Part shown: positions 4,044 to 51,811 of the stretch, in pieces
How positions within the stretch are numbered: the first letter of the stretch is position 1
Layout: each line of letters begins with the position of its first letter
Assembly: GCA_022839995.1 (NCBI GenBank)
Contig: JALHIN010000005.1
Coordinates: 11,878 to 75,877, forward strand
Direction of reading: 5' to 3'
Length of the DNA: 64,000 bases
Source: Synergistota bacterium
GTDB lineage: Bacteria > Synergistota > Synergistia > Synergistales > 79-D21
The notes under the pieces: generated by a model
Database searches by the model: none
What the model saw: only the letters and a program-made list of their open reading frames with translations
Told to the model about the DNA's origin: nothing
Program-made: the position numbers and the translations under genes

Positions 4044-4067
4044 TTGGTAGGTCCTTGGTAGGACCAA
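4044..4067. promoter_or_regulatory. putative GntR/FadR-type operator
   Basis: TTGGTAGGTCC followed directly by the perfect palindrome TTGGT-AGG-ACCAA (4055-4067). It lies 20 nt upstream of the dctP start in the regulator/dctP divergent region. This matches the general tnGTnnnACna FadR-subfamily operator pattern. Confidence 0.45.
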
Positions 4068-4087
4068 TATTGAGGAGGTGTGCAGGA

Positions 4088-5056: not shown

Positions 5057-5066
5057 GTGAAAACCC

Positions 5067-5576: not shown

Positions 5577-6859
5577 TGGGCTGGGTCATCTTCGGATCCT
5601 TCTTCCTCCTGATGCTCATCGGGGTTCCCATCGGCCTTTCCATCGGGCTCGCGGCTCTCGTCGTCTTCCTGGCGAGCGGGATTCCCCTCCAGATGGTTCC
5701 ACAGACGCTCCTGGAGGGGAACAATTCCTTCGCCCTCGTGGCGGTTCCCTTTTTCGTCCTGGCTGGAGACATCCTCGCGAGGGGCGGGATTTCCGAACGC
5801 ATCGTCGCGTTCGCGGAAGCCACGCTGGGCAGGATCCGCGGAGGTCTTTCCATCGTCTCGGTGCTGGCGTCCATGTTCATCGCTGCGATCTCCGGCTCCG
5901 GGGCGGCCACGACGGCTGCCGTCGGATCGGCGCTTTTGCCCGAACTCAAAACGAAAAAATACGACGTCGATTTTTCTGCTGCCCTCATTGCCTCGGCGGG
6001 AACGATCGGGGTGGTCATCCCTCCCAGCGTCCCGATGGTCTTGTACGCGGTCATCGCGGGAGAATCCGTGGCAAAGCTTTTCATGGCCGGGTTCATCCCC
6101 GGCGCCCTCATGGGAGGCGGGCTCATCGCCTATGCCCTCTGGATCGCGAACAGGCGCGGTTACCCGGCCGGTGAAAGACTTCCCGGGGCGGAAGTCGGCC
6201 GGCGCTTTGTGTCCGCCCTGTGGGGGCTCATGACCCCCGTCATCATCCTTGGCGGGATCTTCACGGGGGTCTTCACTCCGTCCGAGGCGGCGGCCATCGC
6301 CGTGGACTACACGCTCCTTGTCGCCTGGCTGGTCTACAGGTCGCTGGATTTCAGGAAGTTCTACGAACTCGTGGTCAACGCGGGTGTCACCTCCGCCCTG
6401 ATCATGTTCATCATCGCCACGGCGAAGCTGTTCGGCTGGGGGCTGGCGTTCTACCAGATCCCGGAGGCCATCGCGAAGACCCTCATGTCCGTCGCGGGCA
6501 ACAACACGTTCATGATTTACCTGATGATCAACGTGATCATCCTTCTCGCCGGGATGTTCATGGAGACCGCCTCGGCGCTGATCATCCTCACGCCGATCTT
6601 CCTGCCTGCGATCCTCGGGATCGGGGGGAACCTCATCCATTTCGGCCTTCTCATCACGATCGGCCTCGCGATCGGGATGGCCACGCCGCCCGTTGCGATC
6701 GACATCTACGTGGCCAGCGCGATCACCGGGCTTTCCATGGAAGAGATCAGCAAGCCGATCGTCCCCATGGTCCTGATCCTGGTGGCGGTGCTTCTCCTCT
6801 GCACCTACGTTCCCTCGCTCGTCCTGGTGCTGCCTCGCCTGTTCATGGCGGGGGTCTGA
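5576..6859 (+). CDS. dctM: TRAP transporter large permease (DctM family)
   Basis: 427-aa polytopic membrane protein. The start overlaps the dctQ stop. DctM-like sequence throughout. Confidence 0.9.
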   Translation: MGWVIFGSFFLLMLIGVPIGLSIGLAALVVFLASGIPLQMVPQTLLEGNNSFALVAVPFFVLAGDILARGGISERIVAFAEATLGRIRGGLSIVSVLASMFIAAISGSGAATTAAVGSALLPELKTKKYDVDFSAALIASAGTIGVVIPPSVPMVLYAVIAGESVAKLFMAGFIPGALMGGGLIAYALWIANRRGYPAGERLPGAEVGRRFVSALWGLMTPVIILGGIFTGVFTPSEAAAIAVDYTLLVAWLVYRSLDFRKFYELVVNAGVTSALIMFIIATAKLFGWGLAFYQIPEAIAKTLMSVAGNNTFMIYLMINVIILLAGMFMETASALIILTPIFLPAILGIGGNLIHFGLLITIGLAIGMATPPVAIDIYVASAITGLSMEEISKPIVPMVLILVAVLLLCTYVPSLVLVLPRLFMAGV

Positions 6860-9279: not shown

Positions 9280-10800
9280 CTAGTCGATAGGGATATCCAC
9301 CGATTTTTCCCTTTTCTTCCGGGCCCGCCAGTCGGAAATGAACGGCCAGGCCAGCGAAATGACGGCCGCGATGAGCAGTCCGTTGGAGATCCCGGAGCGG
9401 AAGAAGATCGAAAGTGACCCGTTCGAGAGCATGAGGGACTGCCGGAACGAGGACTCCATCGAGGCTCCGACCACGGAAGCCAGGATGAGGGGAGCGGTGG
9501 GAACCTTGAACTTCTTCATGAGGTAGCCGACGAACCCGAGGCCGACAAGGAGGTAGAAGTCCATGATGCTGAAGTTGATCGTGTAGACCCCGAGGAATGC
9601 GAGAACCACGACCAGGGGATAAAGGACCTTCGGGGGGATCGACAGCACCCGTACGAGGAGGCCCGCAAGAGGGATGTTGATGAACGCGCAAGCGATATTC
9701 CCCAAGAACATACTGGCGATGATGCCCCAGGCGACGTTCGGGTACTGCTCGAAAAGGAGGGGGCCGGGCTGGAGGCCAAGGATCAGCAGTGCGCCCAGCA
9801 TGACTGCGGTCGTTCCCGAGCCGGGGACGCCAAGGGTCATCATGGGAATCATCGCACCGACCGAGCAGGCGTTGTTCGCGGCTTCAGGGGCAGCCAGGCC
9901 CTCGATGGCTCCCTTGCCGAACTCCTCGGGATGTTTCGAGATCTGCTTTTCGTTGTTGTAGGCCATCAGGGCCGCGATCGTCGCCCCTGCGCCCGGGAGG
10001 ACCCCGACGAAGAATCCGACCGGGGTCTGGCGCAGGATGGGACCGATGCTGCGTTTCCACTGGGCCATGGAGATCCAGATTTTGCCGAACTTCGTCTGGA
10101 CGGGTTTTACCGTCTGCTGCGCGATGTGCTCCAGGTTCACGAAGACCTCGCTGATGCCGTAGATGCCAATGATGACCACGACGAAGTCGATCCCCATCTG
10201 CAACTCTTGGGAACCGAAGGTGAAGCGGGGGACACCGGACTGGAAGTCCAGCCCCACCGTCGTGAACATCAGGCCGAGCACGAGGGAGATGATCCCCTTG
10301 AGGAGGGCTTCCTTGGAGATGGCCGCCGTGGCCGCCAGGGCGAACACCATCAGGCAGAAGTACTCCGGCGGCCCGAACCGGAGGGCGAAGCGGGCGACGG
10401 GCAGGGCGACGAAAACGAAGGCGATTGTCGCGATGAGCCCTCCGATGAACGAGGCGATGGCCGAGATGGCAAGGGCGGCTTCCGCCTGGCCGCTGCGGGC
10501 CATGGGATAGCCGTCGAAGCAGGAGGCTACGGCGGCGCCGTCGCCGGGAACGTTCAGCAGGATCGAGCTCCGCGACCCGCCGAACATGGCCCCGTAATAG
10601 ATGGCACACATGGCGATCAGGGCGGTGTCCGGCCTCATGCCGAAGGTCAGGGGCAGGAGGAGGGCGATGCCCGTGGAGGGGCCGAGTCCCGGAAGCATGC
10701 CTAGAATCGTTCCCAGGATGGAGCCGCCGAGCAGCCAGGCCAGGTTGAGGGGGGTCAGGGCGACGGCGAAACCTTGCATCAGGTGAGCAAATACTTCCAT
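9280..10800 (-). CDS. tctA: tripartite tricarboxylate transporter permease TctA
   Basis: 506-aa polytopic protein with a TctA-like sequence (GMLPGLGPSTGIALLLP, GVLPGAGATIAA). Follows tctB and tctC. Confidence 0.9.
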   Translation of the reverse strand: MEVFAHLMQGFAVALTPLNLAWLLGGSILGTILGMLPGLGPSTGIALLLPLTFGMRPDTALIAMCAIYYGAMFGGSRSSILLNVPGDGAAVASCFDGYPMARSGQAEAALAISAIASFIGGLIATIAFVFVALPVARFALRFGPPEYFCLMVFALAATAAISKEALLKGIISLVLGLMFTTVGLDFQSGVPRFTFGSQELQMGIDFVVVIIGIYGISEVFVNLEHIAQQTVKPVQTKFGKIWISMAQWKRSIGPILRQTPVGFFVGVLPGAGATIAALMAYNNEKQISKHPEEFGKGAIEGLAAPEAANNACSVGAMIPMMTLGVPGSGTTAVMLGALLILGLQPGPLLFEQYPNVAWGIIASMFLGNIACAFINIPLAGLLVRVLSIPPKVLYPLVVVLAFLGVYTINFSIMDFYLLVGLGFVGYLMKKFKVPTAPLILASVVGASMESSFRQSLMLSNGSLSIFFRSGISNGLLIAAVISLAWPFISDWRARKKREKSVDIPID

Positions 10801-10812
10801 TTCCGATCCCCC

Positions 10813-11262
10813 CTACGGCAGGTTGATCTGGAATAGCTTGACGAACACGTACCAGGCCCCGAACGTGAAGCCCAGGGTGAGGATCGTGTTGATTTTCCAC
10901 GCTTTGGGCCCGTTGATCAGAAAGAGGAGGGCCCCCAGGAAGATCAGCGTGGCGAGAATGAAGCCCAGTCTCTCGAAGATGAGGGCGTAGAGGATGCAGA
11001 GCCCGGCCGTTCCGAAGATGAGCTTGAGGCTCGCGGCCTGGAAATTGGGGCGCTTGACCCCTTCCAGGTTTGTCAGGCCTTTTTTGGCTTCGAGGACGAC
11101 CAGGAGGAGTCCCAGGCCGGCCATGAGAATGCCGAGTCCCACGGGAAAGTACACCGGGGCCCAGGGGTTGCCGATCATGGCCTTCGGAAGGTGGAAGGCC
11201 TGAATGGTGTAGACGATGCCGATGAAGATTGCTGACAATCCGACCAGTGCATTGGGTCGCAT
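10813..11262 (-). CDS. tctB: tripartite tricarboxylate transporter small subunit TctB
   Basis: 149 aa with four TM helices, lying between tctC and tctA. Confidence 0.8.
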   Translation of the reverse strand: MRPNALVGLSAIFIGIVYTIQAFHLPKAMIGNPWAPVYFPVGLGILMAGLGLLLVVLEAKKGLTNLEGVKRPNFQAASLKLIFGTAGLCILYALIFERLGFILATLIFLGALLFLINGPKAWKINTILTLGFTFGAWYVFVKLFQINLP

Positions 11263-11286
11263 GGGATCACTCCTTGAAGGTAAAGG

Positions 11287-11318
11287 AAAGGCGGGCTCGG
11301 CCGGCCGGGCCCGCCTTT
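11287..11318 (-). terminator. intercistronic hairpin between tctC and tctB (possible partial terminator or mRNA stabiliser)
   Basis: On the minus strand: aaaggcgggc-(12 nt)-gcccgccttt followed by CCTTTACC. Located between the tctC stop (11332) and the tctB start (11262). Confidence 0.4.
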
Positions 11319-11331
11319 GCAGGCGGAAGGT

Positions 11332-12330
11332 TTACTGTGCCTTCAGCATTCCGATCTCGCCAAGCAGGGTTTTGTACTCGGCATTGGTCTTTTCAAGGAA
11401 TTTTGCAAAATCCGCGGAGTTCATGTAGACCTGGGTCCAACCGTTGCGAGTTGCGATTTCACGCCATTCCGGGGTCTTCACCATCTTGGCAAGAGCTTCT
11501 TCCATGTACTTCACGGCGTATGCCGGCATGTTCTCCGGGCCGAAAATGCCGCGCCAGTTGATGAATTCCGCGTCGATGCCGGATTCCCTCAGGGTCGGGA
11601 CCGTCATCATGGGACCGGACTTGATGCGGTTCGGGGCGGAGATGGCCAGGACACGAATATCCCCCGATTGCATCGGGCCGACGGTTTCGGCCATTCCCGT
11701 GGAAAGAAGGTCGATGTGTCCGCCCATCAAGGCTGCGATTCCTTCACCGCCCTGGAAGGCGATGTATTGAATGGCCTTCAGGTCCTTCACGCCAGCCGCC
11801 TTTGCGGCCACGAGGAACTGGATGTGGTCCATGCTGCCCATGGCGGAGGTGCCGCCGATCTTCACGCTCTTGGGATCCTTCTTGATTGCTTCCATGACAT
11901 CCTTGATGCTCTTGAACTTCGAGTTCTTGGGCACCGCGTAGGCCCCGTAGTCGTTGATCAGCATTGAAATGGGCGTCAGGTTCTTGTAGCTCAGCGGAGT
12001 GGAGCCCGTAAGGTTGATGAGAAGGAGAGGCGGGGAATAGACGACGATCGTGTCGTCACGCCCTTTCTTTTTCTGAAGGTAGGCAAGCGCCACGCCTCCG
12101 CCGCCGCCGGGCTTGTTGATGACGGGCATGGGAACGGTGACGAGTTTCTTTTCCGTCAGGACTTTCGTTGTCATCCGCATTGTCGTGTCCCAGCCGCCGC
12201 CGGGTCCGGCCGGCGCGATGCTCTCGATGGGCTTCGTGGGATAGGCTGCAGAAGCCATGCCCGCAAACAGGGCGCTGAGGACCAGTGCAGCAAGGATCAG
12301 GAACAGGGTTTTGCGCATCATGCTCTTCAT
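11332..12330 (-). CDS. tctC: tripartite tricarboxylate transporter substrate-binding protein TctC (Bug family)
   Basis: Signal peptide MKSMMRKTLFLILAALVLSALFAGMASA. Bug/TctC-like sequence (YPTKPIESIAPAGPGGGWDTTMR, NKPGGGGGVA). Confidence 0.9.
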   Translation of the reverse strand: MKSMMRKTLFLILAALVLSALFAGMASAAYPTKPIESIAPAGPGGGWDTTMRMTTKVLTEKKLVTVPMPVINKPGGGGGVALAYLQKKKGRDDTIVVYSPPLLLINLTGSTPLSYKNLTPISMLINDYGAYAVPKNSKFKSIKDVMEAIKKDPKSVKIGGTSAMGSMDHIQFLVAAKAAGVKDLKAIQYIAFQGGEGIAALMGGHIDLLSTGMAETVGPMQSGDIRVLAISAPNRIKSGPMMTVPTLRESGIDAEFINWRGIFGPENMPAYAVKYMEEALAKMVKTPEWREIATRNGWTQVYMNSADFAKFLEKTNAEYKTLLGEIGMLKAQ

Positions 12331-13237: not shown

Positions 13238-13519
13238 GTGGTGGAATTGGTTTTGGAGATCGCACAGGCAGGAACCCTTGAATCCGCCGATTGCTTGGTG
13301 ACCGTGGCCCCGGCAGAGGAATTCGGGCTGGATTACCGGGGGGGAAACCGGAAGATTTACGGAGAAAGGACGCGGAAACTCGTGCTGGAAACCCTAAAAC
13401 GCTTCGGTTTTTCCGGGGTACAGGTTACCATCCAGGACCAGGGGGCCCTGGAACTGGTGATCCGTGCGAGGCTTGAAACGGCCCTCAAACGGGCGACGAG
13501 GGGGGGCATGGCCTCATGA
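13238..13519 (+). CDS. citD: citrate lyase acyl carrier protein (gamma subunit)
   Basis: AQAGTLESADCLVTV (prosthetic-group Ser context) and DQGALELVIRARLETAL are typical CitD motifs. GTG start after an AAAGGGG SD. The stop overlaps the citE ATG. Confidence 0.8.
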   Translation: MVELVLEIAQAGTLESADCLVTVAPAEEFGLDYRGGNRKIYGERTRKLVLETLKRFGFSGVQVTIQDQGALELVIRARLETALKRATRGGMAS

Positions 13520-14403
13520 GAGCCATGAGATCGATGCTTTACATCCCTGGAAATGCCCCGGGCATGATCCAGAACGCGGCCGTATTCGGGGCCGATTTGA
13601 TCATGATCGACCTGGAAGATGCCGTCGCGCTGGCAGAGAAAGACGCGGCCCGGGATATCGCGGCCGGTTTCCTCCGGCATTACGATTTCGGCGACCTTCC
13701 GGTTGTGGTCAGGATCAACGGCGCCGATACGTCGTTTTTCGAGGCGGACCTCGAATCGATCGTCCCGTTGCAACCCTTCGCCATCCGATTGCCGAAGTGC
13801 CAGGCCCCTTCCGATGTCCTGCTGGCCGACGCGAAGATGATGGAAATCGAAGAAAAGGCAGGGCTTCCGGCAGGCTCGGTCCCGATTCATGCCATGCTCG
13901 AGTCGGCTCGAGGGATCGAACATGCTTACGCGATTGCCACGGCTTGCCCCCGCGTCAGGGCCCTGACGCTGGGGGGGCAGGATTTGACTGCAGACCTGGG
14001 CATCCAGAAAACGCGGGAAGGGTGGGAATTTTTCTACGCCCGAAGCCGGGTCGTCATGGCTGCCAAAGCTGCAGGCATCGATGCCTTCGATACGGTATGG
14101 ACTGATTTCAACGACCCGGAAGGGCTTTTCCGCGAAGCGAAACAGATTGTGGAGCTGGGCTTTACCGGGAAGGCAGCCATCCATCCCAGCCAGGTGCCGA
14201 TCATCCACAGGGCCTTCCGCCCGGACGAAAGGGAAGTCCGAAAGGCGGAGCGCATCCTCGCAGCGGCTGAGGAAGCAGAGCGCCAGGGCCGGGGAGTGGT
14301 CGCCGTGGATGGGAAAATGGTGGATGCCCCGATCATTGCAAGGGCGCGACACCTCATCAGCCTGGCGGGCCTTTATGGAATGGAAGGAGGGGAGGAACGA
14401 TGA
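13516..14403 (+). CDS. citE: citrate (pro-3S)-lyase beta subunit / citryl-CoA lyase
   Basis: 295 aa of the HpcH/HpaI-CitE family (RSMLYIPGNAPGMIQNA, DLIMIDLEDAV, IHPSQV). Confidence 0.9.
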   Translation: MRAMRSMLYIPGNAPGMIQNAAVFGADLIMIDLEDAVALAEKDAARDIAAGFLRHYDFGDLPVVVRINGADTSFFEADLESIVPLQPFAIRLPKCQAPSDVLLADAKMMEIEEKAGLPAGSVPIHAMLESARGIEHAYAIATACPRVRALTLGGQDLTADLGIQKTREGWEFFYARSRVVMAAKAAGIDAFDTVWTDFNDPEGLFREAKQIVELGFTGKAAIHPSQVPIIHRAFRPDEREVRKAERILAAAEEAERQGRGVVAVDGKMVDAPIIARARHLISLAGLYGMEGGEER

Positions 14404-15965
14404 ACTTCGTGAAAAATGCAGCGGGGAGGCTGGTCCCCACGGAAGTCCACGGCATCGGAGCCTTTGCCCCTTACAGAGGGGCCCTCTCCCGGATCCTGGA
14501 AGGCAATCCCTCACCCTCCGCCTTCCCGAAGCGAAAACCGGAGCCGCCATGCCGGAGCAAGGTCGCCCCGAGCCTGAAGGCGGCGATCGAGAAATCGGGC
14601 CTCGAGAACGGCATGACGGTTTCTTTTCACCACCACCTCCGCAACGGCGATAAAGTCATCCCCCTCGTGCTTGAAACCCTCCTCCAGATGGGCTTCAGGG
14701 ACCTTACCTTCGCCCCCAGCTCGATTCCCGACTCGCACGACTGCGTGGCGGACTACGTCCGCAAGGGGCTCATCCGGAGGATCTGGACTTCCGGGGCCCG
14801 CGGCGAGGTAGGCCGCATGATCTCCCGGGGTGAGATGGGGGAAATGGTCATCATCCGGAGCCACGGGGGAAGGGCGAGGGCGATCGAGGAAGGTTCCATC
14901 CAGATCGATGTGGCCTTCCTGGCCGCCCCGGCCTGTGACGCGCTGGGCAACTTTACCGGCTGCATCGGCAAGTCCGCCTGCGGCTCGCTGGGCTACGCCA
15001 TCACCGACGCCCGTTTCGCCCGCCATGTCATCGCCGTGACGGACAACCTCGTGGAGTATCCCCTCCATCCCCACGTCTCGGTGCCCCAGTACCTGGTGAA
15101 CCAGGTCGTAGTGGTGGACAGCCTGGGCGATCCGGCTAAAATCGCCACCGGGGCGGCCCGTATCACGCGTAACCCGCTGGACCTGAAAGTCGCGGAAAAC
15201 GCCTACCGCCTGCTCTCGGCATCAGGAATCCTGGCCCCCGGATGTTCTTTCCAGGTCGGTGCCGGAGGGGCAAGCCTCGCCGTGGCGGCGTTCGTGCGCG
15301 ACCACATGAGGGAAAAGGGAATCCAGGGCAGCTTCGGGCTGGGCGGCATCTCGGGCTACATGTCCCAGATGCTGGAAGAGGGCCTTTTCCGGGGTCTTTT
15401 CGACGTCCAGAGTTTCGATTCCTCCGTGACCGGTTCGATGGTCAGGAACCGCTCCCACATGGAGATCGACCCCTCGTGGTATGCCAATCCGATGAACCAG
15501 GGATGCCTGGTCCACAACCTGGACGTTGTCATCCTCGCGGCTCTTGAAGTGGACACGGATTTCAATGTCAACGTCCTCACCGGGAACGACGGATACCTGC
15601 GAGGGGCATCGGGAGGTCACAGCGACACCGCCGCGGGTGCAAGGGTGGCGATCGTCGTGGCGCCTTCCTTCAGGGGAGGAGTCCCGACCATCAAGGACAG
15701 GGTTCAGACCATCGTGACCCCCGGAGAGACGGTGGACGCGATCGCAACGGAGCGGGGCATCTGCATCAACCCCAGGCGTGCGGATCTATGGGAGGCAGCG
15801 AGGAAGGCCAACTTGCCGATCAGGGAAATCACGGACCTGAAGAAGGAAGTCGAGCGCTTCACGGGGGTTCCCGAGCCTGTCGAACTGGACACGGACCGGG
15901 TTGTAGCCGTCGTGGAATACCGGGACGGAACGTTGCTCGACAGCATTTACCGGGTAAGGGAATAA
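14400..15965 (+). CDS. citF: citrate lyase alpha subunit / citrate CoA-transferase
   Basis: 521 aa with a CitF-like sequence. The start overlaps the citE stop. Confidence 0.9.
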   Translation: MNFVKNAAGRLVPTEVHGIGAFAPYRGALSRILEGNPSPSAFPKRKPEPPCRSKVAPSLKAAIEKSGLENGMTVSFHHHLRNGDKVIPLVLETLLQMGFRDLTFAPSSIPDSHDCVADYVRKGLIRRIWTSGARGEVGRMISRGEMGEMVIIRSHGGRARAIEEGSIQIDVAFLAAPACDALGNFTGCIGKSACGSLGYAITDARFARHVIAVTDNLVEYPLHPHVSVPQYLVNQVVVVDSLGDPAKIATGAARITRNPLDLKVAENAYRLLSASGILAPGCSFQVGAGGASLAVAAFVRDHMREKGIQGSFGLGGISGYMSQMLEEGLFRGLFDVQSFDSSVTGSMVRNRSHMEIDPSWYANPMNQGCLVHNLDVVILAALEVDTDFNVNVLTGNDGYLRGASGGHSDTAAGARVAIVVAPSFRGGVPTIKDRVQTIVTPGETVDAIATERGICINPRRADLWEAARKANLPIREITDLKKEVERFTGVPEPVELDTDRVVAVVEYRDGTLLDSIYRVRE

Positions 15966-42820: not shown

Positions 42821-45181
42821 CTAGAAGCCTTCCTGGGCCGTGCGGGCGATGATCTCCTCCTGGTGGTACTGGTCCAGGTCCACGAAGTAGTCGCTGTAGC
42901 CCGCCACCCGGACGAGGAGGTCGCGGTAGTTCTCCGGGTGCTTCTGGGCATCTCGCAGGGTGTCGGAGTCCACCACGTTGAACTGCATGTGGTGACCCCC
43001 CAGGCGGAAGTACGTGCGGATCAGCTGGCAGAGGGCATCGACTCCCTCTTCCCCCGCAAGGACGGAGGGAAGGAACCTCTGGTTCAGCAGCGTGCCGCCC
43101 GACTTGACCTGGTCCATCTTGGCCAGCGATTTCACGACGGCCGTCGGACCGTGGCGGTCGGCCCCGTGGGACGGGGAAGTCCCGTCGGATTCGGGCAGGT
43201 GCGCGAAACGCCCGTTGGGCGTGGCCCCGAGCTTTTTCCCGAAGTAGACGTGGCAGGTCGTGGAGAGCATGTTCAGGTGGTAGGTCGGGCCCTTGGGGCT
43301 GTGCTGCCCTTCGATGGTCCTAAACAGGGAATCGTAAACCCGCTGCATGATCGAATCGGCGTAATCGTCGTCGTTGCCGAAGAACGGAGTCTTGTTCCAG
43401 ACGAACTGCCTCAGGGGTTCGTCGCCTTCCCAGTTCTTCCTGAGGGCTTCGAGGAGGGTCTTCATGGGGATCGTGTTGTCCTCGAAGACGTGCTTCTTCA
43501 GCACCGCCAGGCTGTCCGTGATGGTGCCGATGCCGCAGCACTGGATGTAGTCGGAGTTGTAGCGGGCCCCGCCGTCGTAGTAGTCGCGGCCGTTCTTGAT
43601 GCAGTCGTTGATCACCACGGAAAGGAAGGGGGCCGGGGCGTAGGTGGCAAACATCCGCTGCAGGAAGTTGTCGACCTCGATCTTCGTTTCGACCACGTAG
43701 CGCAGCTGCTTCTCGAAGGCCGCGTAGAGTTCGTCGAAAGTGGCGAAGCTTTCCGGGTCGCCCGTTTCCAGCCCGACCTTCTTGCCGGTGAGGGGATCCA
43801 CGCCGTTGTTCAGGGTCAGTTCGAGGATTTTCGGAACGTTGAGATAGCCGTGGAGGATGTAGGCTTCCTTGCCGAAGGCTCCCGTTTCAACGCATCCGCT
43901 GGTGCCTCCTTCGCGGGCGTCCTCGGGAGTCTTTCCGACGCGGATCTGTTCCGCGATGACCATGTCCGCGTTGAAAACCGAGGGGTAGCCGGAGCCGCGG
44001 CGGATCACCTTCGCGGCGAACTTCAGGAACGCGTCGGGGGTTTTGGCGCTGATCTGGACGCTCACCTGCGGCTGCAAAAGCTGGAGTTCGTCCAGGACCT
44101 CCAGGATCAGGGTCGAAACCTCGCTCGACCCGTCGGTGCCGTCCGCCTTCAGCCCTCCCAGGTTGATCTGGGTGAAGTCGTTGTAGGTGCCGCTTTCCGC
44201 GGCCGTGACGCCGACCTTCGGGGGAGCCGGGGTGTTGTTCACCTTGATCCAGAAGCAGGAAAGCAGCTCTCGGGCTCCTTCCCGGTCCAGGATCCCCTCC
44301 GCGAGGTCTTTCTCGTAGAAAGGAGCGAGGTGCTGGTCAAGGTGCCCCGGGCTCATGGCATCCCAGCCGTTGAGTTCGGTGATCGTCCCGAGATGGACGA
44401 ACCAGTACATCTGCAGGGCTTCCCAGAAATTCCGCGGGGCATGGGCGGGGACCCAGCGGCAGACCGAGGCGATCTTCAGGAGCTCGGCCTTGCGCCGCGG
44501 ATCCTTTTCCTCGGCGGCCATCTTCTCCGCCAGGTCCGCGTGACGCTCCGCGAAGAGGATCGCCGCGTCGCAGGAGATGTCCATGGCGGTCAGTTCTTCG
44601 GCTTTCTCCGTGGCATGGGGGTCGTTGAGATAATCGAGGCGTGCCTTGCTCTCGGCGATCTCCCTCTTGAAGTCGAGCATGCCCTTTCGGTAGATGGTCC
44701 CGTCCAGGGCCGTGTGTCCAGGGGCCCTCTGCTCCATGAACTCCGTGAAAAGGCCGGCTTCGTACAGGGCCTTCCATTTCCCGGGGATCTGGGCAAAGGC
44801 CTTGTCGCGCATGCTCCGTCCCCGCCAGTAGGGGATGACCTTCTCCGCGTAGAGGTCGATGTCTTCCGGGGAAACGGAATAGCTCGTCATCTTCCGGGAG
44901 TTGAGGATTTCCAGGTCCTCCCGGGAATGGCAATTGAGCTCGGGGAAGGTGGACACCGCCTTGGGAGCCGGTCCCCGTTCCCCGACGATCAGCTCGTCCG
45001 GGCCGATGTAGATCGTCTTTTTCTCGCAGAGGTTCTTGAAATTCATCGCGCGCATGACGGGAGTCGAGAATTTCCCCGCGTTTTCCTGGTAGAACTCGGT
45101 TACCAGAAGGGCCCGTTCGATGGAGATGGACGGGTGGGTTTCGAAACTTTCCTTCCTGAGCCTGGCAATGCGGTCGTTCAT
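42821..45181 (-). CDS. glycyl-radical enzyme, PFL2/eliminase class (candidate trans-4-hydroxy-L-proline dehydratase)
   Basis: 786 aa from MNDRIARLRKESF (AGGAGGG SD). Cys-loop GGTSGCVETG and C-terminal glycyl radical motif RVAGYSDYF. The track start at 45298 overlaps the activase gene. Confidence 0.9.
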   Translation of the reverse strand: MNDRIARLRKESFETHPSISIERALLVTEFYQENAGKFSTPVMRAMNFKNLCEKKTIYIGPDELIVGERGPAPKAVSTFPELNCHSREDLEILNSRKMTSYSVSPEDIDLYAEKVIPYWRGRSMRDKAFAQIPGKWKALYEAGLFTEFMEQRAPGHTALDGTIYRKGMLDFKREIAESKARLDYLNDPHATEKAEELTAMDISCDAAILFAERHADLAEKMAAEEKDPRRKAELLKIASVCRWVPAHAPRNFWEALQMYWFVHLGTITELNGWDAMSPGHLDQHLAPFYEKDLAEGILDREGARELLSCFWIKVNNTPAPPKVGVTAAESGTYNDFTQINLGGLKADGTDGSSEVSTLILEVLDELQLLQPQVSVQISAKTPDAFLKFAAKVIRRGSGYPSVFNADMVIAEQIRVGKTPEDAREGGTSGCVETGAFGKEAYILHGYLNVPKILELTLNNGVDPLTGKKVGLETGDPESFATFDELYAAFEKQLRYVVETKIEVDNFLQRMFATYAPAPFLSVVINDCIKNGRDYYDGGARYNSDYIQCCGIGTITDSLAVLKKHVFEDNTIPMKTLLEALRKNWEGDEPLRQFVWNKTPFFGNDDDYADSIMQRVYDSLFRTIEGQHSPKGPTYHLNMLSTTCHVYFGKKLGATPNGRFAHLPESDGTSPSHGADRHGPTAVVKSLAKMDQVKSGGTLLNQRFLPSVLAGEEGVDALCQLIRTYFRLGGHHMQFNVVDSDTLRDAQKHPENYRDLLVRVAGYSDYFVDLDQYHQEEIIARTAQEGF

Positions 45182-45186
45182 GCCTT

Positions 45187-46092
45187 TCACCCTCCTATGA
45201 GGACATTGAGTCCAAATGACTTCAGGCTTTGCGCCGCGGCTTCCTGCGCCTCCGCGCTGGGCGGAAGGGTGTCCGGAAGGCGGTAGGCGATTCCCCACTT
45301 CGCGTACTTGTTGCGGCCCGCGGCATGGTACGGGAGCAGGTGTACGGAAACGACTCCTTTCAGGGCCGCGACGAACCGGCCCGTCTGCCGCAGGTTTTCT
45401 TCATCGTCGTTGATTCCGGGGATCAGGGGGATCCGGATTGCGACCCGGGCCCCCGAATCGGTGAGCGCCTTCAGGTTTTCCAGGATCAGGGTGTTGTCGA
45501 CGCCGGTGTAAAGCTTGTGTTTCTCGGGATCCATGTGCTTGATGTCGTAAAGGAAGAGGTCGGCCAGGCGGGCGGTCTCCAGCAGGACCGAGGTCTGGGC
45601 GAAGCCCGTGGTGTCCACTGCCGTGTGGATCTGCAGTTTCCGGCAGCCTTCCAGGAGCTCCCAGAGGAAATCCGGCTGGAGGAGCGGCTCGCCGCCGGAA
45701 AAGGTGGCCCCGCCGCCGGATTCGTCGTAGAAGGGGATGTCTTTCCGGATAACCTCCAGCACCTCGCCCGAAGTCATCACGCGCCCCACCCTTTCCCGGG
45801 CGGTGGACGGGCAAGCATCCGCGCAGGCTCCGCAGCCGGTGCAAAGGGAAGGGTCGGCGAAGAAACCTTCCGGCGTGGCAGTGATGGCTCCGAGGGGGCA
45901 AGCCTTGAGGCAGGCTCCGCAGCCGATGCACCTCTCGGGCCGGTACAGGACGGCGGGCTGGGGAGAAATGCTCTCTGGGTTGTGGCACCACCAGCAGGAC
46001 AACGGGCAACCCTTCAGGAACACGGTTGTGCGGATGCCGGGCCCGTCGTGGATGGAATACTTTTTGAAGTCGAACACGATGCCGCTTTTCAT
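45187..46092 (-). CDS. glycyl-radical enzyme activating protein (radical SAM with two auxiliary ferredoxin-type clusters)
   Basis: CPLSCWWCHNPE radical-SAM cluster, then CIGCGACLKACP and CTGCGACADACP. Preferred start is ATG 46092, with an AAAGGGGAA SD. It ends 5 nt before the GRE start. Confidence 0.9.
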   Translation of the reverse strand: MKSGIVFDFKKYSIHDGPGIRTTVFLKGCPLSCWWCHNPESISPQPAVLYRPERCIGCGACLKACPLGAITATPEGFFADPSLCTGCGACADACPSTARERVGRVMTSGEVLEVIRKDIPFYDESGGGATFSGGEPLLQPDFLWELLEGCRKLQIHTAVDTTGFAQTSVLLETARLADLFLYDIKHMDPEKHKLYTGVDNTLILENLKALTDSGARVAIRIPLIPGINDDEENLRQTGRFVAALKGVVSVHLLPYHAAGRNKYAKWGIAYRLPDTLPPSAEAQEAAAQSLKSFGLNVLIGG

Positions 46093-46165
46093 GGCAGGTT
46101 CCCCTTTTTGAAAACCCACTTTCGGGGCTTTCGCTGATACATCATATATCAGTTGGGGAAACCCG

Positions 46166-47335
46166 TCAAGCCTCGCGGCGAAAAGCGCCGAGCTTTTGCA
46201 GCTCGAGGGCTGACCGCAGCATCAGGATTCCCCTGGCATCCCGAAGGTCCAGGCCCGTCAGGCGCCCGATTTTCTGCAGCCGGTAGGACAGGGTGTTCCG
46301 GTGGATGGAAAGAGACCGGGCAACCCGGGCCGGCTCGAAAGGCCGGTCGCACCAGGCCAGGAAGGTCCGAACGAGGTCCCTGGAATCGGGACAGGCGAGG
46401 AGGTCCTTCAGGACGGTTTCGCAAAAGGCCGATGCGCGGTCCTTCGGAATAGTGGACAGGAGGGATTCCATCCGGAGTTCGCCGATGAAGAAGACCCGTT
46501 CGGCCGTGTCCTTCCCGGCGGAAAGGCGGGCGGCCTCGAGGGCGGTCCGGTAGGCTTCGCCCAGGAGGGCTGCCGATGTGGCGATCTCGCCGATTCCGAT
46601 CCAAACCGGAAGCCCCTCCCCCTCAAGGGAAAGTGCCAAAAGCCGGGCGGTTTTCCGAACCTCCCCGAGGGGGTCCTTTTCTTTCGCGGCAAGCCCCAGG
46701 AAAGCAAGGACGACGAGTTTTTCGTCTCCGAGGCGGGTGACGATGTCCTGCGGGTGCGAAAAGAACTTGCGGCCGAGGGCTTGCGCCTCCAGCCGCCTGT
46801 TCAGGGGCACATCCTCGGGGCGGAGGAGCTCCGCCACCAGGACCGCACGGGGCGACCGCAGGTCGTAGCCGAGTTCCCGGCCCCGCATCACCGGGAGGGA
46901 CTCGTCTGCTTTCCGGGGATCGAAAGCGGCGATCTCCAGGATCAACTCCTGGAGGGCCTGTTCCCGCATCATCGCTGAGCGGACCAGGGCGTTCTCCCGG
47001 AGAAGGAGTTCGGCCTGTTTCTGCACGAGACGACCGTACCGGGAGACTTCCTCGGGGGGCCCGGCGATGGCGATGGAGCCGACGACCCGGCCCGCAAGAG
47101 AAATTGGAAGGGTGATCCCCGGGCGGACCCCTTCCGGGAGGTTTTGGGCCTCTTCCTGGGTCGTGATTTCCGGGCGGCGCGTCCGGATGACTTCCAGCGA
47201 AGGACTGTGAAGAGAACCGAGGCGGGACGGGTCGCTCGATCCGATCACGAGACCTTTTTCGTCGGTCAGGAGAACGCTGTAACCGGCGATCTCCGAGGTG
47301 TTTTCTGCAAGTTCCTGTGCGCAGGCCCGCAGCAT
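46166..47335 (-). CDS. CdaR/PucR-family transcriptional regulator (diacid-recognition-type N-domain plus PucR HTH)
   Basis: N-terminus MLRACAQELAENTSEIAGYSVLLTDEKGLVIGSSDPSRLGSLHSPS. C-terminal HTH LSIHRNTLSYRLQKIGRLTGLDLRD. ATG 47335 has an AAAGGAGA SD. Confidence 0.85.
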   Translation of the reverse strand: MLRACAQELAENTSEIAGYSVLLTDEKGLVIGSSDPSRLGSLHSPSLEVIRTRRPEITTQEEAQNLPEGVRPGITLPISLAGRVVGSIAIAGPPEEVSRYGRLVQKQAELLLRENALVRSAMMREQALQELILEIAAFDPRKADESLPVMRGRELGYDLRSPRAVLVAELLRPEDVPLNRRLEAQALGRKFFSHPQDIVTRLGDEKLVVLAFLGLAAKEKDPLGEVRKTARLLALSLEGEGLPVWIGIGEIATSAALLGEAYRTALEAARLSAGKDTAERVFFIGELRMESLLSTIPKDRASAFCETVLKDLLACPDSRDLVRTFLAWCDRPFEPARVARSLSIHRNTLSYRLQKIGRLTGLDLRDARGILMLRSALELQKLGAFRREA

Positions 47336-47384
47336 CGTCAGTCTCCTTTCATTTGTGCAGAAAGACAAAAATCAATGCATTTCC

Positions 47385-47520: not shown

Positions 47521-48807
47521 ATGAGGCTGGAACTGCACGAAGTCCAGATTTCGGATATCCAGTGGGGGCAGAAGACGGAAGCCGTCGATCACGTGCTTCG
47601 GGTGAACCGTGAAGAGGCCGAGAGCGCGGTTTCCGGCGATGAGCGCTTTGCGTCGGTTCGGCTTGACCTGGCGCGCCCGGGGGAGAGCGTCCGGATCATT
47701 CCCGTCAAGGATGTGGTGGAGCCGCGGGTCAAGTTGAAGGGAGGACGAGGGTATTTCCCGGGTTTCTTCGCTCCGCCGGAAACCGCGGGGGAAGGGGTCA
47801 CGCTGGTCCTCAAGGGGGCGGCCGTGGTGACCTGCGGGCCGATCGTGGCTTTCCAGGAAGGGTTCATCGATATGTCGGGAACGGGTGCCGAATATACGCC
47901 GTTCTCGAAAACCCACAACCTGGTCCTGACGGTCGAACCGGTGGAAGGACTGGGAAAGCATGCCTACGAAGAGGCCCTGAGGCTGGCGGGCCTGAAGCTC
48001 GCCCTGTACCTGGCGGAGTCCTGTCGAGAGGCGAAGGTCGACAGGGTCCGCGTTTTCGAAAAGGGGTCCATCCAGGAGGAGAACGAGAAATACCCGGACC
48101 TGCCGCGGATCCTCTACATCTGCATGGCCATCACCCAGGGCCTGCTTCACGACACGTTCCTCTACGCGGCCGACATGAAGACCGTTCTGCCCACCCTCCT
48201 GCATCCCAACGAGGTGCTGGACGGGGCTCTCGTTTCGGGCAACTGCGTTTCCGCCTGCGACAAGAACACGACGTTCCACCACGTCAACAACCCGGTGGTG
48301 GAGGCTCTCTACAGGCGCCACGGGAAGGACCTGAACTTCCTGGGCGTCGTTCCGACGGTGGAAGACGTCCGGCTGGCCGGCAAGGAGAGGGCCTCTTCGA
48401 TGAACGCGGCACTGGCCAAAAACCTGGGAGCTCACGGGGTCATCGTCACCGAGGAAGGGTACGGCAACCCGGACACGGATCTCTGCCTGAACGCAAGGAA
48501 ATGCGAGAACCTCGGGATCCGCACCGTCGTGATTTCCGACGAAGCCGCCGGGACGGACGGTTCAAGCCAGGGCCTGGCGGACGCAACGCCCGAAATGAGC
48601 GCGTTCGTTTCCTCGGGGAACGTCAACGAGATGATCGAGGTGCCTCCCATGCAGACGGTGCTCGGGCATCCCGAATCGATCGCGAACCTGTCCGGCGGCG
48701 CGGCGGAAAGCCTGAGGCCGGACGGAAGCATGTTCGTGGAACTGCAGGCCGTGATCGGGTCCACCTGCGAACTCGGCTTCAGCCGCATCGGCTGCGAATG
48801 GATCTAG
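47521..48807 (+). CDS. grdE: glycine/sarcosine/betaine reductase component B alpha/beta proprotein (GrdE family)
   Basis: 428 aa, with GNC at residues 240-242. Cys242 is where I recall the self-cleavage and pyruvoyl-forming Cys of GrdE. GGGAGGGG SD. Confidence 0.88.
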   Translation: MRLELHEVQISDIQWGQKTEAVDHVLRVNREEAESAVSGDERFASVRLDLARPGESVRIIPVKDVVEPRVKLKGGRGYFPGFFAPPETAGEGVTLVLKGAAVVTCGPIVAFQEGFIDMSGTGAEYTPFSKTHNLVLTVEPVEGLGKHAYEEALRLAGLKLALYLAESCREAKVDRVRVFEKGSIQEENEKYPDLPRILYICMAITQGLLHDTFLYAADMKTVLPTLLHPNEVLDGALVSGNCVSACDKNTTFHHVNNPVVEALYRRHGKDLNFLGVVPTVEDVRLAGKERASSMNAALAKNLGAHGVIVTEEGYGNPDTDLCLNARKCENLGIRTVVISDEAAGTDGSSQGLADATPEMSAFVSSGNVNEMIEVPPMQTVLGHPESIANLSGGAAESLRPDGSMFVELQAVIGSTCELGFSRIGCEWI

Positions 48808-48818
48808 GCGAGGGAGGA

Positions 48819-50141
48819 ATGAGCACGATGACGATACGGGTTGTCCACTACATCAACCAGTTTTACGCCGGGCTGGGCGGCGAAGAGGCGGCCAACGCGC
48901 TTCCCGAGAGCCGCGAAGGAGCCGTCGGGCCCGGAATGCAGCTGCAAGCCCTCTTCGGGGAGAAAGCAAGGATCGTCGGGACCGTCGTCTGCGGTGACGG
49001 AACCTACGGCGAGCGGACGGAGGAAGCCCGCTCGGAATGCCTTCGGCTCATCGAAGATTTCCGGCCGGACCTTTTCGTCGCCGGGCCCGCTTTCAACGCC
49101 GGCCGGTACGGGTTTGCATGCGGGGACATCTGCTCCACGGTCGGAAAGAAGCTGGGCATTCCCACGGTAACGGCTCTCTACCCGGAAAATCCCGGCGTGG
49201 AGCTTTTCGCGAAGAACACCGTTATCGTCCAGGCGGCGGATAGCGCGAGGGGCATGAAGCCCGCCCTGGAAGGACTGGCCCGCATCGGTCTCAAGCTGGC
49301 CGCCGGTGAGCCGCTGGGTCCGGCAAGGCTGGAAGGGACGATCCCCCGGGGGATCCGGAAGAATTTCTTCTTCGAAAAAAACGGGGCCGAGCGGGCGGTG
49401 GAAATGCTGCTGGAAAAGATCGCAGGCAGGCCCTTCCGAACGGAGTACGAGATGCCGGTCTTCAAGCGGATTCCGCCGGCTCCTCCCATCAAGGACCTGA
49501 AAAAGGCCACCATCGCGCTGGTCTGCTCAGGGGGGATCGTTCCCAGGGGGAACCCGGACCATATCCGGGTCTCTTCCGCCGAAACCTACGGGAAGTACGA
49601 TATTTCCAAGCTGGACGACCTGACCCCGGAAACCTACGAGTCAATCCACGGCGGCTATGACCGGGTTTGGGCCAACGAGGACCCGGACGTGGTCCTCCCG
49701 GTCGACCTCATGCGGGAACTCGAGCGGGAAGGAGTTTTCGGGAAGCTGTATGATTGGATCTATACGACGACGGGAACCGGGACGGCCGTCTCCCACGCGG
49801 AGCGTTTCGGGCGCGAGATCGGGGCCCAGTTGAAAGAGGCGGGCGTCGACGGGGTGATCCTCACATCCACCTGAGGCACCTGCACTCGATGCGGCGCATC
49901 GATGACCCGGGAAATCGAGAAGGCGGCGGGGATCCCCGTCGTCCAGATTGCCACCATCGTCCCGATCATGCTGACGGTTGGATCCAACCGGATCGTTCCG
50001 GGTGTGGCGATTCCCCACCCCGTTGGAGACCCGGCGAAGGGGCCGGAAGCGGACAGGAAGGCCAGGCGAGAACTTCTCCTGAAAGCTCTGGAAGCCATGA
50101 CGACCCCGATCACCGAGCAGACCATTTTCGAAAGGAAGTGA
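48819..50141 (+). CDS. grdB: glycine/sarcosine/betaine reductase component B selenoprotein (GrdB family), Sec encoded by TGA at 49872-49874
   Basis: Track ORFs 48501..49874 and 49902..50141 are in the same frame, separated only by the TGA. The junction reads ILTST-U-GTCTRCGA, the GrdB selenocysteine motif. ATG 48819 with a GGGAGG SD. Confidence 0.9.
49886..49902 (+). promoter_or_regulatory. candidate bacterial SECIS hairpin
   Basis: tcgatgc-ggc-gcatcga is a perfect 7-bp stem starting 11 nt after the UGA, the spacing known for bacterial SECIS elements. Confidence 0.6.
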
Positions 50142-50155
50142 CCTCCTCGACACCC

Positions 50156-51673
50156 ATGAAAAGATCGACCACGCTGATGCCGGTTTCAAAGAACCCGCCG
50201 GCCAAAGTCCGGGACAAGGGGCTCATCCGGCTGGCCAAGGCCGGTGCGGCTGCCTACGATGCCTCGAGGGACCGGATCCTCTGGCTTCCCCTGGGGAAGG
50301 CGATGCTGGAACGGTTGGGAAGCGGGCTTTCCTCCCGCTTCCAGTCCGCCGGTGCCCAACCCGTGGACTGCGGCCAGGGAGAAGGAGGAACCCTCCCGGT
50401 CGCGGTTCGGGTCCTGAAGACCGTCGACCAACTCCCCCTCGCCCTCATGGAGAAAAGCGGGGATTCGATCCTGCTGGAAGGATTCGATCCCGAGGGTTCC
50501 CTGCCCGGGTGGCCGGTTTACGCGGAACGCCTCCTCTCCTTCCTCCAGGAGAGGGGGATGGAACTCTCCGTGTTCCAGGAGGCCCTGCCTTTCGGTGAAA
50601 GGACGGTCATCGCCTGCGGCTGCGACGGGGATGCGCGGGGTGCCCGAGAGTCGCGGACATGTCCCGCCTGCGGATGGACGGCCTCGGTCGACACTTTGCT
50701 CCCGCCGGAAACGCCGCCCGACGAAGAGGAAAGGCCTCTGGAAGCCGTCCTGACTCCGGGCGCGACGACCATCGCGGAGCTTTGCAGGCAGCTGGGATGT
50801 CCCCCGGACCGGACCATCAAGACGATGTTCTATGCCGCGGAAAAGGAAGGCAGGACGTTCGTGGCGGCGGCCCTGGTCCGCGGAGACCGGGCGGTCAACG
50901 TCACGAAGCTTTCCCGGGCCCTGGACGGTGCAGTGGTGAGAAGGGCCGAAAGCGTCGACCTCAAGCAGGCCGGTTGCGACGTGGCGGGATTTTTGGGACC
51001 TGTCGGCCTGCCAGGGACGGTTCAGGTGATTGCCGACCTGTCCGTTGCGGGAACGAAGAACCGCGTGATCGGGGCCAACCGCCCCGAGACCCACTTCACC
51101 GGCGCCTGCTGGGGAAGGGATTACGAGGCACCCGTGGCGGACATCTCCGGGTTGGAGCCCCAAGCCCCTTGCCCGGCCTGCGGAAAACCCGTGGAAAAGG
51201 GGTGGGTCCGGGTTGTTGCCGAATTTGCCAAGGGTCACCCGGCCCTGCCCGCTTTCCCTTCGCTGGGGTACCTGGACGAAAACAGGAAGCGCAAGCTGCC
51301 TGAGGTTTGGCGGGGCCGGATCCAGCTGGAAGCGATCGCCCTGGGTGCTGCGGGGGATGGGGACCGGCCGTTCCGCCGGGGCCTCAGTCCAGCCGACCTC
51401 CTCGTCCTTCCGCTCGAAACGGGCGGGACGGAGGCGGCCAAGGCCGCGGAAAGCCTGGCGGAGAAACTGGAACGAAACGGCTGGGCCGTCCTCCTGGACG
51501 ACCGGGTGCTTCCCGACGGGGTGCGTCTTGCGGAAGCCGCGCTGGTCGGTACTCCGCTGCAGGTCCTCGTCGCGGACGGGCAGGAGGCGGAAGTGATCGG
51601 CGGCGGGGGGAGCCTTGGTCGGGTTTCCCTGGAGGGGGTAGAATCCCTCCTGGAGCCGTTGAGGCTGGATTAA
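50156..51673 (+). CDS. prolyl-tRNA synthetase paralogue retaining the INS (editing) and anticodon-binding domains but lacking class II catalytic motifs
   Basis: 505 aa. The ProRS-like N-terminus (MKRSTTLMPVSKNPPAKV...LAKAG...WLPLG) is present. The INS domain is present (TIAEL, TIKT, LVRGD, GFLGPVG, GAN, WGRD). The HGTP-type C-terminal domain is present (LLVLPL...LLDDR...G). The motif 2 (fRDE) and motif 3 (GIGxxR) regions are not recognisable. Confidence 0.75.
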   Translation: MKRSTTLMPVSKNPPAKVRDKGLIRLAKAGAAAYDASRDRILWLPLGKAMLERLGSGLSSRFQSAGAQPVDCGQGEGGTLPVAVRVLKTVDQLPLALMEKSGDSILLEGFDPEGSLPGWPVYAERLLSFLQERGMELSVFQEALPFGERTVIACGCDGDARGARESRTCPACGWTASVDTLLPPETPPDEEERPLEAVLTPGATTIAELCRQLGCPPDRTIKTMFYAAEKEGRTFVAAALVRGDRAVNVTKLSRALDGAVVRRAESVDLKQAGCDVAGFLGPVGLPGTVQVIADLSVAGTKNRVIGANRPETHFTGACWGRDYEAPVADISGLEPQAPCPACGKPVEKGWVRVVAEFAKGHPALPAFPSLGYLDENRKRKLPEVWRGRIQLEAIALGAAGDGDRPFRRGLSPADLLVLPLETGGTEAAKAAESLAEKLERNGWAVLLDDRVLPDGVRLAEAALVGTPLQVLVADGQEAEVIGGGGSLGRVSLEGVESLLEPLRLD

Positions 51674-51811
51674 TAAGTACCCGAGAGGGGGCGGGGGCAA
51701 AGAGCTTCGCCCCCCCAGTTGATATTTCAGCGGGCAAAAGCGTCGCGTCTTGACTGCATTAAGGCCCCTATCTATACTCGAAGGAAATTCGGTTCAGGAG
51801 GTGTTTTGTGG

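Follow-up and report, generated by a model that had tools for sequence, protein, structure and literature searches.

A prolyl-tRNA synthetase paralogue with a degenerate synthetic site and a conserved editing domain beside grdE/grdB-like genes of a Synergistota bacterium: a candidate trans-editing factor

What is the function of a gene that descends from a prolyl-tRNA synthetase (ProRS), has apparently lost the ability to charge tRNA, and yet is maintained beside the genes of a selenoprotein reductase? This question is raised by a stretch of 64,000 nucleotides of contig JALHIN010000005.1 of a Synergistota bacterium (hereafter, the window), in which an open reading frame (ORF) for a ProRS paralogue directly follows grdE- and grdB-like genes of the glycine/sarcosine/betaine reductase family (Table 1). 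A previous inspection of the letters alone (the sequence-only reading) had located this ORF 15 nt past the grdB-like stop, had regarded it as a non-aminoacylating ProRS relic, and had listed several possible functions, among them that of a proline sensor or carrier and that of a trans-editing factor. The coordinates agree: the ATG at 50156 lies 15 nt past the last base of the stop codon at 50139-50141, leaving a gap of 14 nt. On balance, the evidence presented here, which is drawn from the sequence and its comparison with relatives, favours the view that the paralogue serves specifically as an Ala-tRNAPro deacylase acting in trans, in analogy to archaeal ThrRS-ed, an editing-only paralogue of threonyl-tRNA synthetase (ThrRS).

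The descent from ProRS, previously judged by eye, is supported by both profile and fold. A profile made from an alignment of 26 family members (A1) could be aligned over its full length with the ProRS of E. faecalis (2J3L), its positions 1-508 corresponding to residues 1-562 (E 5e-92). The structure prediction that had been proposed, obtained with AlphaFold2 (AF2), gave a P-type ProRS fold with a predicted local distance difference test score (pLDDT) of 91.5 and a predicted template-modelling score of 0.89; the best Foldseek matches of this model were all P-type ProRS, with TM-scores of 0.73-0.75 to 2J3L and 2J3M. The P-type architecture, consisting of a catalytic core interrupted by the editing domain INS and followed by an anticodon-binding domain (ABD), is found in the paralogue by profile alignment as well as by Foldseek. 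P-type ProRS are its clear homologues and its evolutionary source, and share with it the domain order, the fold, the active-site residues of INS and, in many members, a flanking pair of CxxC motifs.

What has been lost is the synthetic site. The paralogue is some 67 residues shorter than the bacterial-type ProRS of E. faecalis (2J3L) and E. coli (ProS), and lacks the PTHEE loop, the motif-2 loop and motif 3. In the alignment to 2J3L, about 36 residues are missing where the segment ending in PTHEE, the proline/ATP loop, would be expected, and about 18 where the motif-2 loop (RDE...R.REF) would be; VWRGRIQLEA occupies the position of motif 3, which is GCYGIGVSR in canonical ProRS. The sequence-only reading had described all of these changes (the GRW/THEE segment missing, motif 2 replaced, motif 3 turned into WRGRIQLEA), but had allowed that a proper alignment might recover motifs 1, 2 and 3 intact; motifs 2 and 3 were found lost, the former by deletion of its loop. 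Column-by-column comparison with canonical sequences confirmed the three losses in every member, and the corresponding positions vary freely within the family. A Pfam scan of the paralogue revealed no class II core domain (tRNA-synt_2b, PF00587), and its scores against the NCBIfam ProRS equivalogs PRK09194 and TIGR00409 were 134.9 and 79.7 bits, to be compared with cut-offs of 558 and 306.7 bits. Having neither the proline/ATP loop nor motifs 2 and 3, the paralogue is predicted to be unable to make prolyl-adenylate or to charge tRNA, its core surviving only as a scaffold, and its description as a non-aminoacylating relic appears to be correct. In functional terms it falls outside the ProRS equivalog, and it belongs to none of the free-standing ProXp families either. 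With its proline-binding loop gone, the paralogue is unlikely to play the suggested role of a proline sensor or carrier.

What has been kept is the hydrolytic site. The Pfam domain tRNA_edit (PF04073) matches residues 200-319 with 73.6 bits (cut-off 25.5), and the strings by which INS had been judged to be well preserved, namely TIAEL, TIKT, LVRGD, GFLGPVG, GAN, WGRD and ADI, are all present. The catalytic residues are invariant or nearly so: L209, K222, G278, P282, G306, N308 and H313 are found in all 26 members of A1, while I206, T220 and A307 occur in 90% or more of them, and G278 to P282 make up the GXXXP loop of INS. We take I206, L209, T220 and K222 to be the counterparts of E. coli I263, L266, T277 and K279, and H313 that of H369, on the basis of an alignment with the P. 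aeruginosa protein and of the E. coli sequence. Together with the GXXXP loop, these E. coli residues are known to make up the alanine pocket and the catalytic site of INS. Almost all of the degenerate relatives described below retain the same set. Judged by these residues, the hydrolytic site of the paralogue is fully intact, and its pocket is predicted to be of the alanine type.

The pattern of constraint points to the same part of the protein. Mean pairwise identity was determined for each domain in 27 Synergistota paralogues, in 100 clusters of degenerate ProRS-like proteins (see below) and in 31 canonical ProRS. In the Synergistota paralogues it was 0.34 and 0.28 for the two catalytic remnants, 0.60 for INS and 0.36 for the ABD; in the degenerate clusters it was 0.28-0.29 for the catalytic core, 0.46 for INS and 0.40 for the ABD. 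In canonical ProRS the order is reversed, with 0.59 for the core, 0.45 for INS and 0.43 for the ABD, so that the part which is most conserved in a canonical enzyme is the least conserved in the paralogue. Among the 27 Synergistota sequences, 31 of the 135 INS columns are invariant, as against none of the 64 columns in the motif-3 half of the core. The ratio of non-synonymous to synonymous substitution rates (dN/dS) was estimated against four relatives, and should be read as approximate because dS is about 0.8-1.3, i.e. near saturation; it was 0.16-0.20 for the whole gene, 0.08-0.14 for INS, 0.16-0.21 for the N-terminal remnant and 0.24-0.42 for the ABD. The paralogue gene is functional and under purifying selection, and the hydrolytic site is what selection preserves most. 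The dead core is itself still under constraint, strongest in the motif-1 region: identity in the N-terminal remnant is 0.42 at amino acids 1-60 and drops to 0.25 at amino acids 111-165.

The ABD had also been described as preserved, and the domain is retained. The domain is recognized by Pfam (HGTP_anticodon, PF03129, residues 415-474) with 25.2 bits against a cut-off of 21, although only 60 of the 94 profile positions are matched; its fold is predicted by AF2 with a pLDDT of about 90, and its DDR motif is kept (of its three residues, D449 and R450 do not vary in A1, and D448 hardly does). However, the motif GvKF.DadL.G.P has become DGVRLAEAALVGTP in the window clade, that is, in the clade to which the paralogue of the window belongs. 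This motif is diverged only in the two clades in which the paralogue is linked to grd genes, the window clade (DGVRLAEAALVGTP) and the Acetomicrobium clade (NSKLDDSVEMGIP), and is canonical, AGVKFSDAELIGLP, in the Thermovirgaceae-type clade, in which it is linked to dnaK. In addition, Synergistaceae forms of about 410-420 amino acids exist that retain the dead core and INS and lack the ABD entirely (P0032, P0034, P0036-P0039, P0130 and P0186); three of them (P0036, P0038 and P0039) are also devoid of the second CxxC. Recognition of tRNA may therefore differ between lineages, the ABD being diverged in the grd-linked clades and absent in the forms of about 415 amino acids.

The two CPACG motifs that flank INS had been taken as the sign of a four-cysteine metal site. 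They are indeed present and invariant in the family, but they are not particular to it: most of the canonical P-type ProRS recovered by our search carry a CxxC...CxxC pair at about residues 224 and 392-400. A four-cysteine motif as a novelty of the paralogue was thus rejected, and the pair is inherited.

Of the functions listed by the sequence-only reading, trans-editing would fit best, the INS pocket being the most constrained part of the protein. INS is known to deacylate Ala-tRNAPro, with tRNA specificity coming from the ABD, which reads G35 and G36 (PMC11295145), and a full-length ProRS can recapture a released mischarged tRNA and edit it in trans (PMC4787780). The paralogue, probably as a dimer, would rebind tRNAPro that has been mischarged with alanine and released by the active ProRS of the cell, holding it through the ABD and the scaffold; the 3' end of the tRNA would then be placed in the INS pocket, where the ester bond would be hydrolysed, making the protein a trans-editing factor. 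In evolutionary terms, an old P-type enzyme may have been kept for proofreading only, after a ProRS of the archaeal/eukaryote type (E-type), which has no INS, took over charging. In the window lineage, co-transcription with grdE/grdB beside hypD might raise proofreading when proline-like amino acids are catabolized and the ratio of alanine to proline shifts.

A precedent for an editing-only synthetase paralogue is the crenarchaeal ThrRS-ed, which corrects in trans the tRNA mischarged by a separate charging enzyme (PMC11295145, PMC4787780). Like ThrRS-ed, the paralogue derives from a synthetase, keeps the editing and anticodon-binding domains, and has lost the synthetic site; this is an analogy and not a homology, since ThrRS-ed belongs to another synthetase family, has an unrelated editing fold, and has a known catalytic-only partner. 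With YbaK, ProXp-ala/PrdX, ProXp-x and ProXp-ST1/2 the paralogue shares the YbaK fold, the lysine, the GXXXP loop and the predicted hydrolysis of mischarged tRNA in trans. However, according to a 2024 review, all trans-editing factors of the INS superfamily are single-domain proteins (PMC11295145). These free-standing factors recognize the tRNA through its acceptor stem or rely on ProRS (PMC11295145), whereas the paralogue keeps the scaffold and the ABD; they have about 150-170 amino acids, whereas the paralogue has 505, arranged in four regions. Its editing domain is also of the type present in cis in ProRS, as it matches PRK09194 at positions 222-398, while the score against the YbaK_EbsC model TIGR00011 is 19.4 bits for a cut-off of 153.

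Several points weigh against a dedicated Ala-tRNAPro deacylase. Both the deacylase activity and its substrate are inferred from conserved residues; the link to grd genes is not family-wide; the ABD of the window clade is its least constrained domain by dN/dS and has a diverged GvKF.DadL.G.P motif; and the existence of ABD-less forms of about 415 amino acids means that anticodon-guided recognition may fail in some lineages. Moreover, tblastn revealed no active proS in the window, nor in the Synergistota loci, which amount to about 0.4 Mb. If a normal P-type ProRS with its INS were present, a second editor of Ala-tRNAPro would be redundant, and a changed substrate or role would become likelier.

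The genomic context of the paralogue differs between clades. Six further loci of the window clade are syntenic with the window and carry hypD, its activase, PucR, grdE, grdB and the paralogue, followed by genes for a binding protein (Peripla_BP_6) and for an amidohydrolase. Three loci of the Acetomicrobium clade (L013, L014 and L017; e.g. L017:6330-13004) have PucR followed by grdE, a grdB and a grdA both encoding selenocysteine (Sec), grdX, the paralogue and an SNF-family transporter. Between these two clades the paralogue is only 38% identical, as compared with 71% for GrdE. In a neighbour-joining tree, calculated without support values, the window clade, the Acetomicrobium clade and a grd-less lineage (L001) group together, and because of this grouping the grd adjacency is probably one old arrangement retained in a sub-lineage. 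All 14 loci of the Thermovirgaceae-type clade have instead the paralogue upstream of an ORF of 145 amino acids (orf145), whose family was not recognized, followed by dnaK, dnaJ and clpB; all three genes are present in 12 of the 14 loci, the contig ending early in the other two. In this clade, the small conserved ORFs flanking the paralogue gave no usable Pfam match, and no CIRCE (HrcA) operator was found near the paralogue or dnaK in any locus. In other lineages the paralogue has unrelated neighbours, and neither the grd nor the dnaK context is present.

The link to grd is therefore real for the lineage of the window, but it is not a property of the whole family. It had been considered that the ORF might not be conserved beside grd-like genes in any related genome, while the adjacency was found in two clades; the proposed tie to GrdE/GrdB is only partial, and does not extend to the 14 dnaK-linked loci or to the other lineages. 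PrdX is the ProXp-ala gene of the proline-reductase operon of C. sticklandii. A shifted balance of alanine and proline has been proposed to raise the need for editing in that operon. Like PrdX, some of the paralogues are encoded within a gene cluster for a selenoprotein Stickland reductase, and the placement by hypD and grdE/grdB may be seen as a parallel to it, while the placement by dnaK-dnaJ-clpB would agree with a function in the quality control of proteins; neither goes beyond an association.

Among the alternatives, an INS deacylase with a shifted substrate survives best, though we regard it as unlikely. In this case, the substrate would not chiefly be Ala-tRNAPro, but tRNAPro mischarged with a proline-like or small amino acid made abundant by the adjacent catabolism, such as sarcosine (an isomer of alanine), glycine or serine. 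The neighbouring hypD gene, and the resemblance of the GrdE/GrdB pair to the models of sarcosine reductase subunits above all others, would be in keeping with this idea, as would the relaxed specificity of the bacterial INS relatives, since ProXp-ala also hydrolyses Ser-tRNA (PMC11295145). Nevertheless, the residues of the alanine-specificity pocket (E. coli I263, L266 and H369) are unchanged, the pocket does not differ in members found away from grd genes, and mischarging of tRNAPro with sarcosine is itself speculation.

A second alternative is that the paralogue is a non-catalytic regulatory or adaptor subunit of the Grd/HypD pathway, in the style of HisZ and HisG, whose role would be to detect uncharged tRNAPro, or a ligand related to proline, and to regulate either the reductase itself or its expression. 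HisZ is, like the paralogue, a class IIa synthetase paralogue retained after losing aminoacylation. The adjacency to grdE/grdB and the probable co-transcription with them, the retention of this adjacency in two clades in spite of the low identity of their paralogues, and the divergence of the ABD sequence specifically in the grd-linked clades could all be explained in this way. However, HisZ is regulatory and has no hydrolytic domain, while the conserved part of the paralogue is a hydrolase site, and the strongest constraint falls on the hydrolytic residues of INS rather than on a new surface. In addition, the proline-binding loop is deleted, most members are not beside grd, 14 loci being beside dnaK-dnaJ-clpB, and the same degeneration occurs in other phyla without a grd context. 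We therefore consider a regulatory subunit rather improbable.

Still less weight can be given to the possibility that the paralogue is a heterodimer partner of a canonical P-type ProRS, supplying or boosting its editing, as in the T1-T2 ThrRS of Anabaena. While, within the catalytic remnant, conservation is highest in the region of motif 1, which forms the dimer interface, and trans-oligomerization of duplicated synthetases has a precedent (PMC4787780), no canonical P-type ProRS was seen in any of the Synergistota loci examined, and a P-type partner would bring its own INS. Finally, it is very improbable that the gene encodes an unusual but active ProRS, even if several sources annotate members as 'prolyl-tRNA synthetase', as it has neither the TxE loop nor motifs 2 and 3 and the positions concerned are not conserved, or that it is decaying and functionless, considering that its frame is intact in at least 21 species, with the low dN/dS and the 31 invariant INS columns reported above.

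For the active proS, the window and 44 loci were searched by tblastn using canonical P-type ProRS (whole, and N-terminal half) and the E-type ProRS of locus L034 as queries; in the window and the approximately 0.4 Mb of Synergistota loci, only paralogues were matched, and proS was found in neither its P-type nor its E-type form. When proteins were searched with the E-type query, matches came from Chloroflexota only, and E-type ProRS of 477-480 amino acids with PF09180 are found in Anaerolineae, Anaerolineales and Caldilineaceae. Anaerolineales also carry degenerate P-type copies (L030-L036). On a Chloroflexota contig (L034:9332-12496), an intact P-type proS, with FRDEPRPRAGTIRVREF as motif 2, is directly followed by an E-type proS; this tandem could represent a starting state for the displacement of one synthetase by the other. 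No P-type and E-type genes were found on the same contig around P0046 and P0078. E-type ProRS have been reported from about 22% of bacteria, with Bacillus possessing both types (PMC11229370). From this circumstantial support, all of which comes from Chloroflexota, we infer that the active ProRS of the paralogue-bearing bacteria may be an INS-less enzyme of the archaeal/eukaryote type.

As to the distribution of the family, a first protein search returned about 40 clusters of about 500 amino acids without PF00587, the named ones being from Synergistales or Synergistaceae. When species genomes were scanned, 21 species of Synergistota proved to carry the family, among them Acetomicrobium hydrogeniformans, Thermovirgaceae and the complete genome of 'Bacterium M3-1'. 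The Synergistota paralogues form a single clade in the neighbour-joining tree without support values, and a related degenerate group is present in Anaerolineales. An exhaustive profile search of 1.84 billion representatives gave about 1,474 clusters at E <= 1e-30, of which the best 150 were inspected. In well over 100 of these 150 (500-590 amino acids) PTHEE, motif 2 and motif 3 are degenerate, in many different states, while K279, the GXXXP loop and GAN..H are kept in all of the degenerate clusters and DDR almost always. The degenerate clusters, formed at 50% identity, lie within the set P0121-P0260, and at least one of them is an Armatimonadota protein annotated as proline--tRNA ligase. A tree calculated from the INS and ABD columns does not separate degenerate forms from intact ProRS, the two being intermingled; for this reason a single origin of all degenerate forms was rejected, and synthesis seems to have been lost repeatedly while INS and ABD were retained.

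Public names of family members differ (hypothetical protein, YbaK/EbsC family protein, prolyl-tRNA synthetase), and NCBIfam has no model for the paralogue family. Our literature searches retrieved no description of a catalytically dead ProRS with INS and ABD, nor of ProRS in Synergistetes. As a tentative generalization, which we consider possible rather than probable, these proteins might constitute a class, 'ProRS-ed', that would have arisen repeatedly after E-type takeover, would occur in multiple phyla, and would comprise the first known multi-domain, anticodon-guided INS trans-editors; in one Synergistota sub-lineage, they would have been recruited into Stickland-reductase/hydroxyproline operons, so that proofreading of tRNAPro would be induced along with the catabolism of proline-like amino acids, an independent repetition of the PrdX arrangement.

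The features of the window, together with the dnaK-linked loci, are listed in Table 1. The in-frame TGA of the grdB-like gene lies in the context TST-U-GTCTRCG, which is typical for Sec, and is directly followed by a SECIS_4 match at 49875-49905 that is weak and sub-threshold. The best NCBIfam match of the grdE-like product is the sarcosine reductase subunit GrdG, with 528 bits, below the cut-off of 780. The grdE/grdB pair is an 'orphan': its closest models are those of sarcosine reductase GrdG and GrdF, both well under their cut-offs, and no grdA, grdC, grdD or thioredoxin genes were found beside it in the 64-kb window. No terminator-like site was detected on the plus strand between grdB and the paralogue; the gene after the paralogue is preceded by a promoter-like site, and a strong terminator-like site lies 3' of that gene. 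In the window lineage the paralogue is probably co-transcribed with grdE/grdB, as judged from these sequence features.

The glycyl radical enzyme encoded on the opposite strand scores 1203 bits against NF043068 (trans-4-hydroxy-L-proline dehydratase HypD) and passes the cut-off of 1100, while its activase scores 363 bits against NF043069, below the cut-off of 425. These genes are divergent from the PucR-grdE-grdB-paralogue unit, which brings a route from hydroxyproline to proline beside a gene related to tRNAPro. No tRNA genes were found in the 64-kb window. Two alternative ORFs were discarded as frame artefacts. One, of 639 amino acids, starts from the TTG at 49754 and would extend the paralogue upstream (49754-50155) over grdB, while all homologues start with MKRS or MRLS; the other, of 504 amino acids, is antisense (50186-51700, minus strand), and mirrors the paralogue. 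Both are ascribed to the high G+C content of 62-65%. The window also contains genes for organic acids, namely those for citrate-lyase subunits (HpcH/CitE-like and CitF), the tripartite ATP-independent periplasmic transporter DctPQM and the tripartite tricarboxylate transporter TctABC (13516-15965, 4055-6859 and 9280-12330), which belong to ordinary metabolism and have no tie to the paralogue.

Table 1. Features of the paralogue and its gene neighbourhood (positions are those of the window, unless a locus is named).
Feature	Position	Strand	Remarks
Catalytically dead P-type ProRS paralogue gene	50156..51673	+	505 aa plus stop; from translation
N-terminal catalytic half	50156..50650	+	motif-1 region kept; PTHEE loop and motif-2 loop deleted; dN/dS 0.16-0.21
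First CxxC, C169/C172	50660..50671	+	invariant in family; also at ~residue 224 of most canonical P-type ProRS matches
INS/YbaK-type editing domain, aa 196-330	50741..51145	+	PF04073; I206, L209, T220, K222, G278-P282 loop, G306-A-N308, H313
Second CxxC, C339/C342	51170..51181	+	invariant in family; common to canonical P-type ProRS
C-terminal catalytic remnant, aa 347-410	51194..51385	+	motif 3 = VWRGRIQLEA; 0/64 columns invariant; mean identity 0.28
Class IIa anticodon-binding domain, aa 411-505	51386..51670	+	PF03129; DDR kept; dN/dS 0.24-0.42
grdB-like selenoprotein B gene	48819..50141	+	directly upstream of paralogue; Sec codon TGA 49872-49874
grdE-like proprotein gene	47521..48807	+	component B alpha/beta, glycine/sarcosine/betaine reductase family; PF09338 637.6 bits
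Divergent PucR/CdaR-type regulator	46166..47368	-	conserved with grdE/grdB in both grd-linked clades
hypD and radical S-adenosylmethionine (SAM) activase	42821..46119	-	hypD probable start 45184, activase 45187-46119; context in window clade only
dnaK-linked loci	L003, L004, L008, L018-L020, L022-L029 (e.g. L003:8001-15864)		

If the paralogue does act as proposed, it would bring a new architecture, that of an entire synthetase from which the synthetic activity has been removed, to the group of factors that safeguard the accuracy of proline codons, and it would reveal a recurrent route by which a synthetase is kept purely for proofreading after duplication or displacement. Given the public annotations, automated counts of proS can credit genomes with a ProRS that cannot charge tRNA. 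Finally, the placements beside grdE/grdB and hypD in some lineages and beside dnaK-dnaJ-clpB in others suggest a connection between the fermentation of amino acids, mistranslation and the quality control of proteins.

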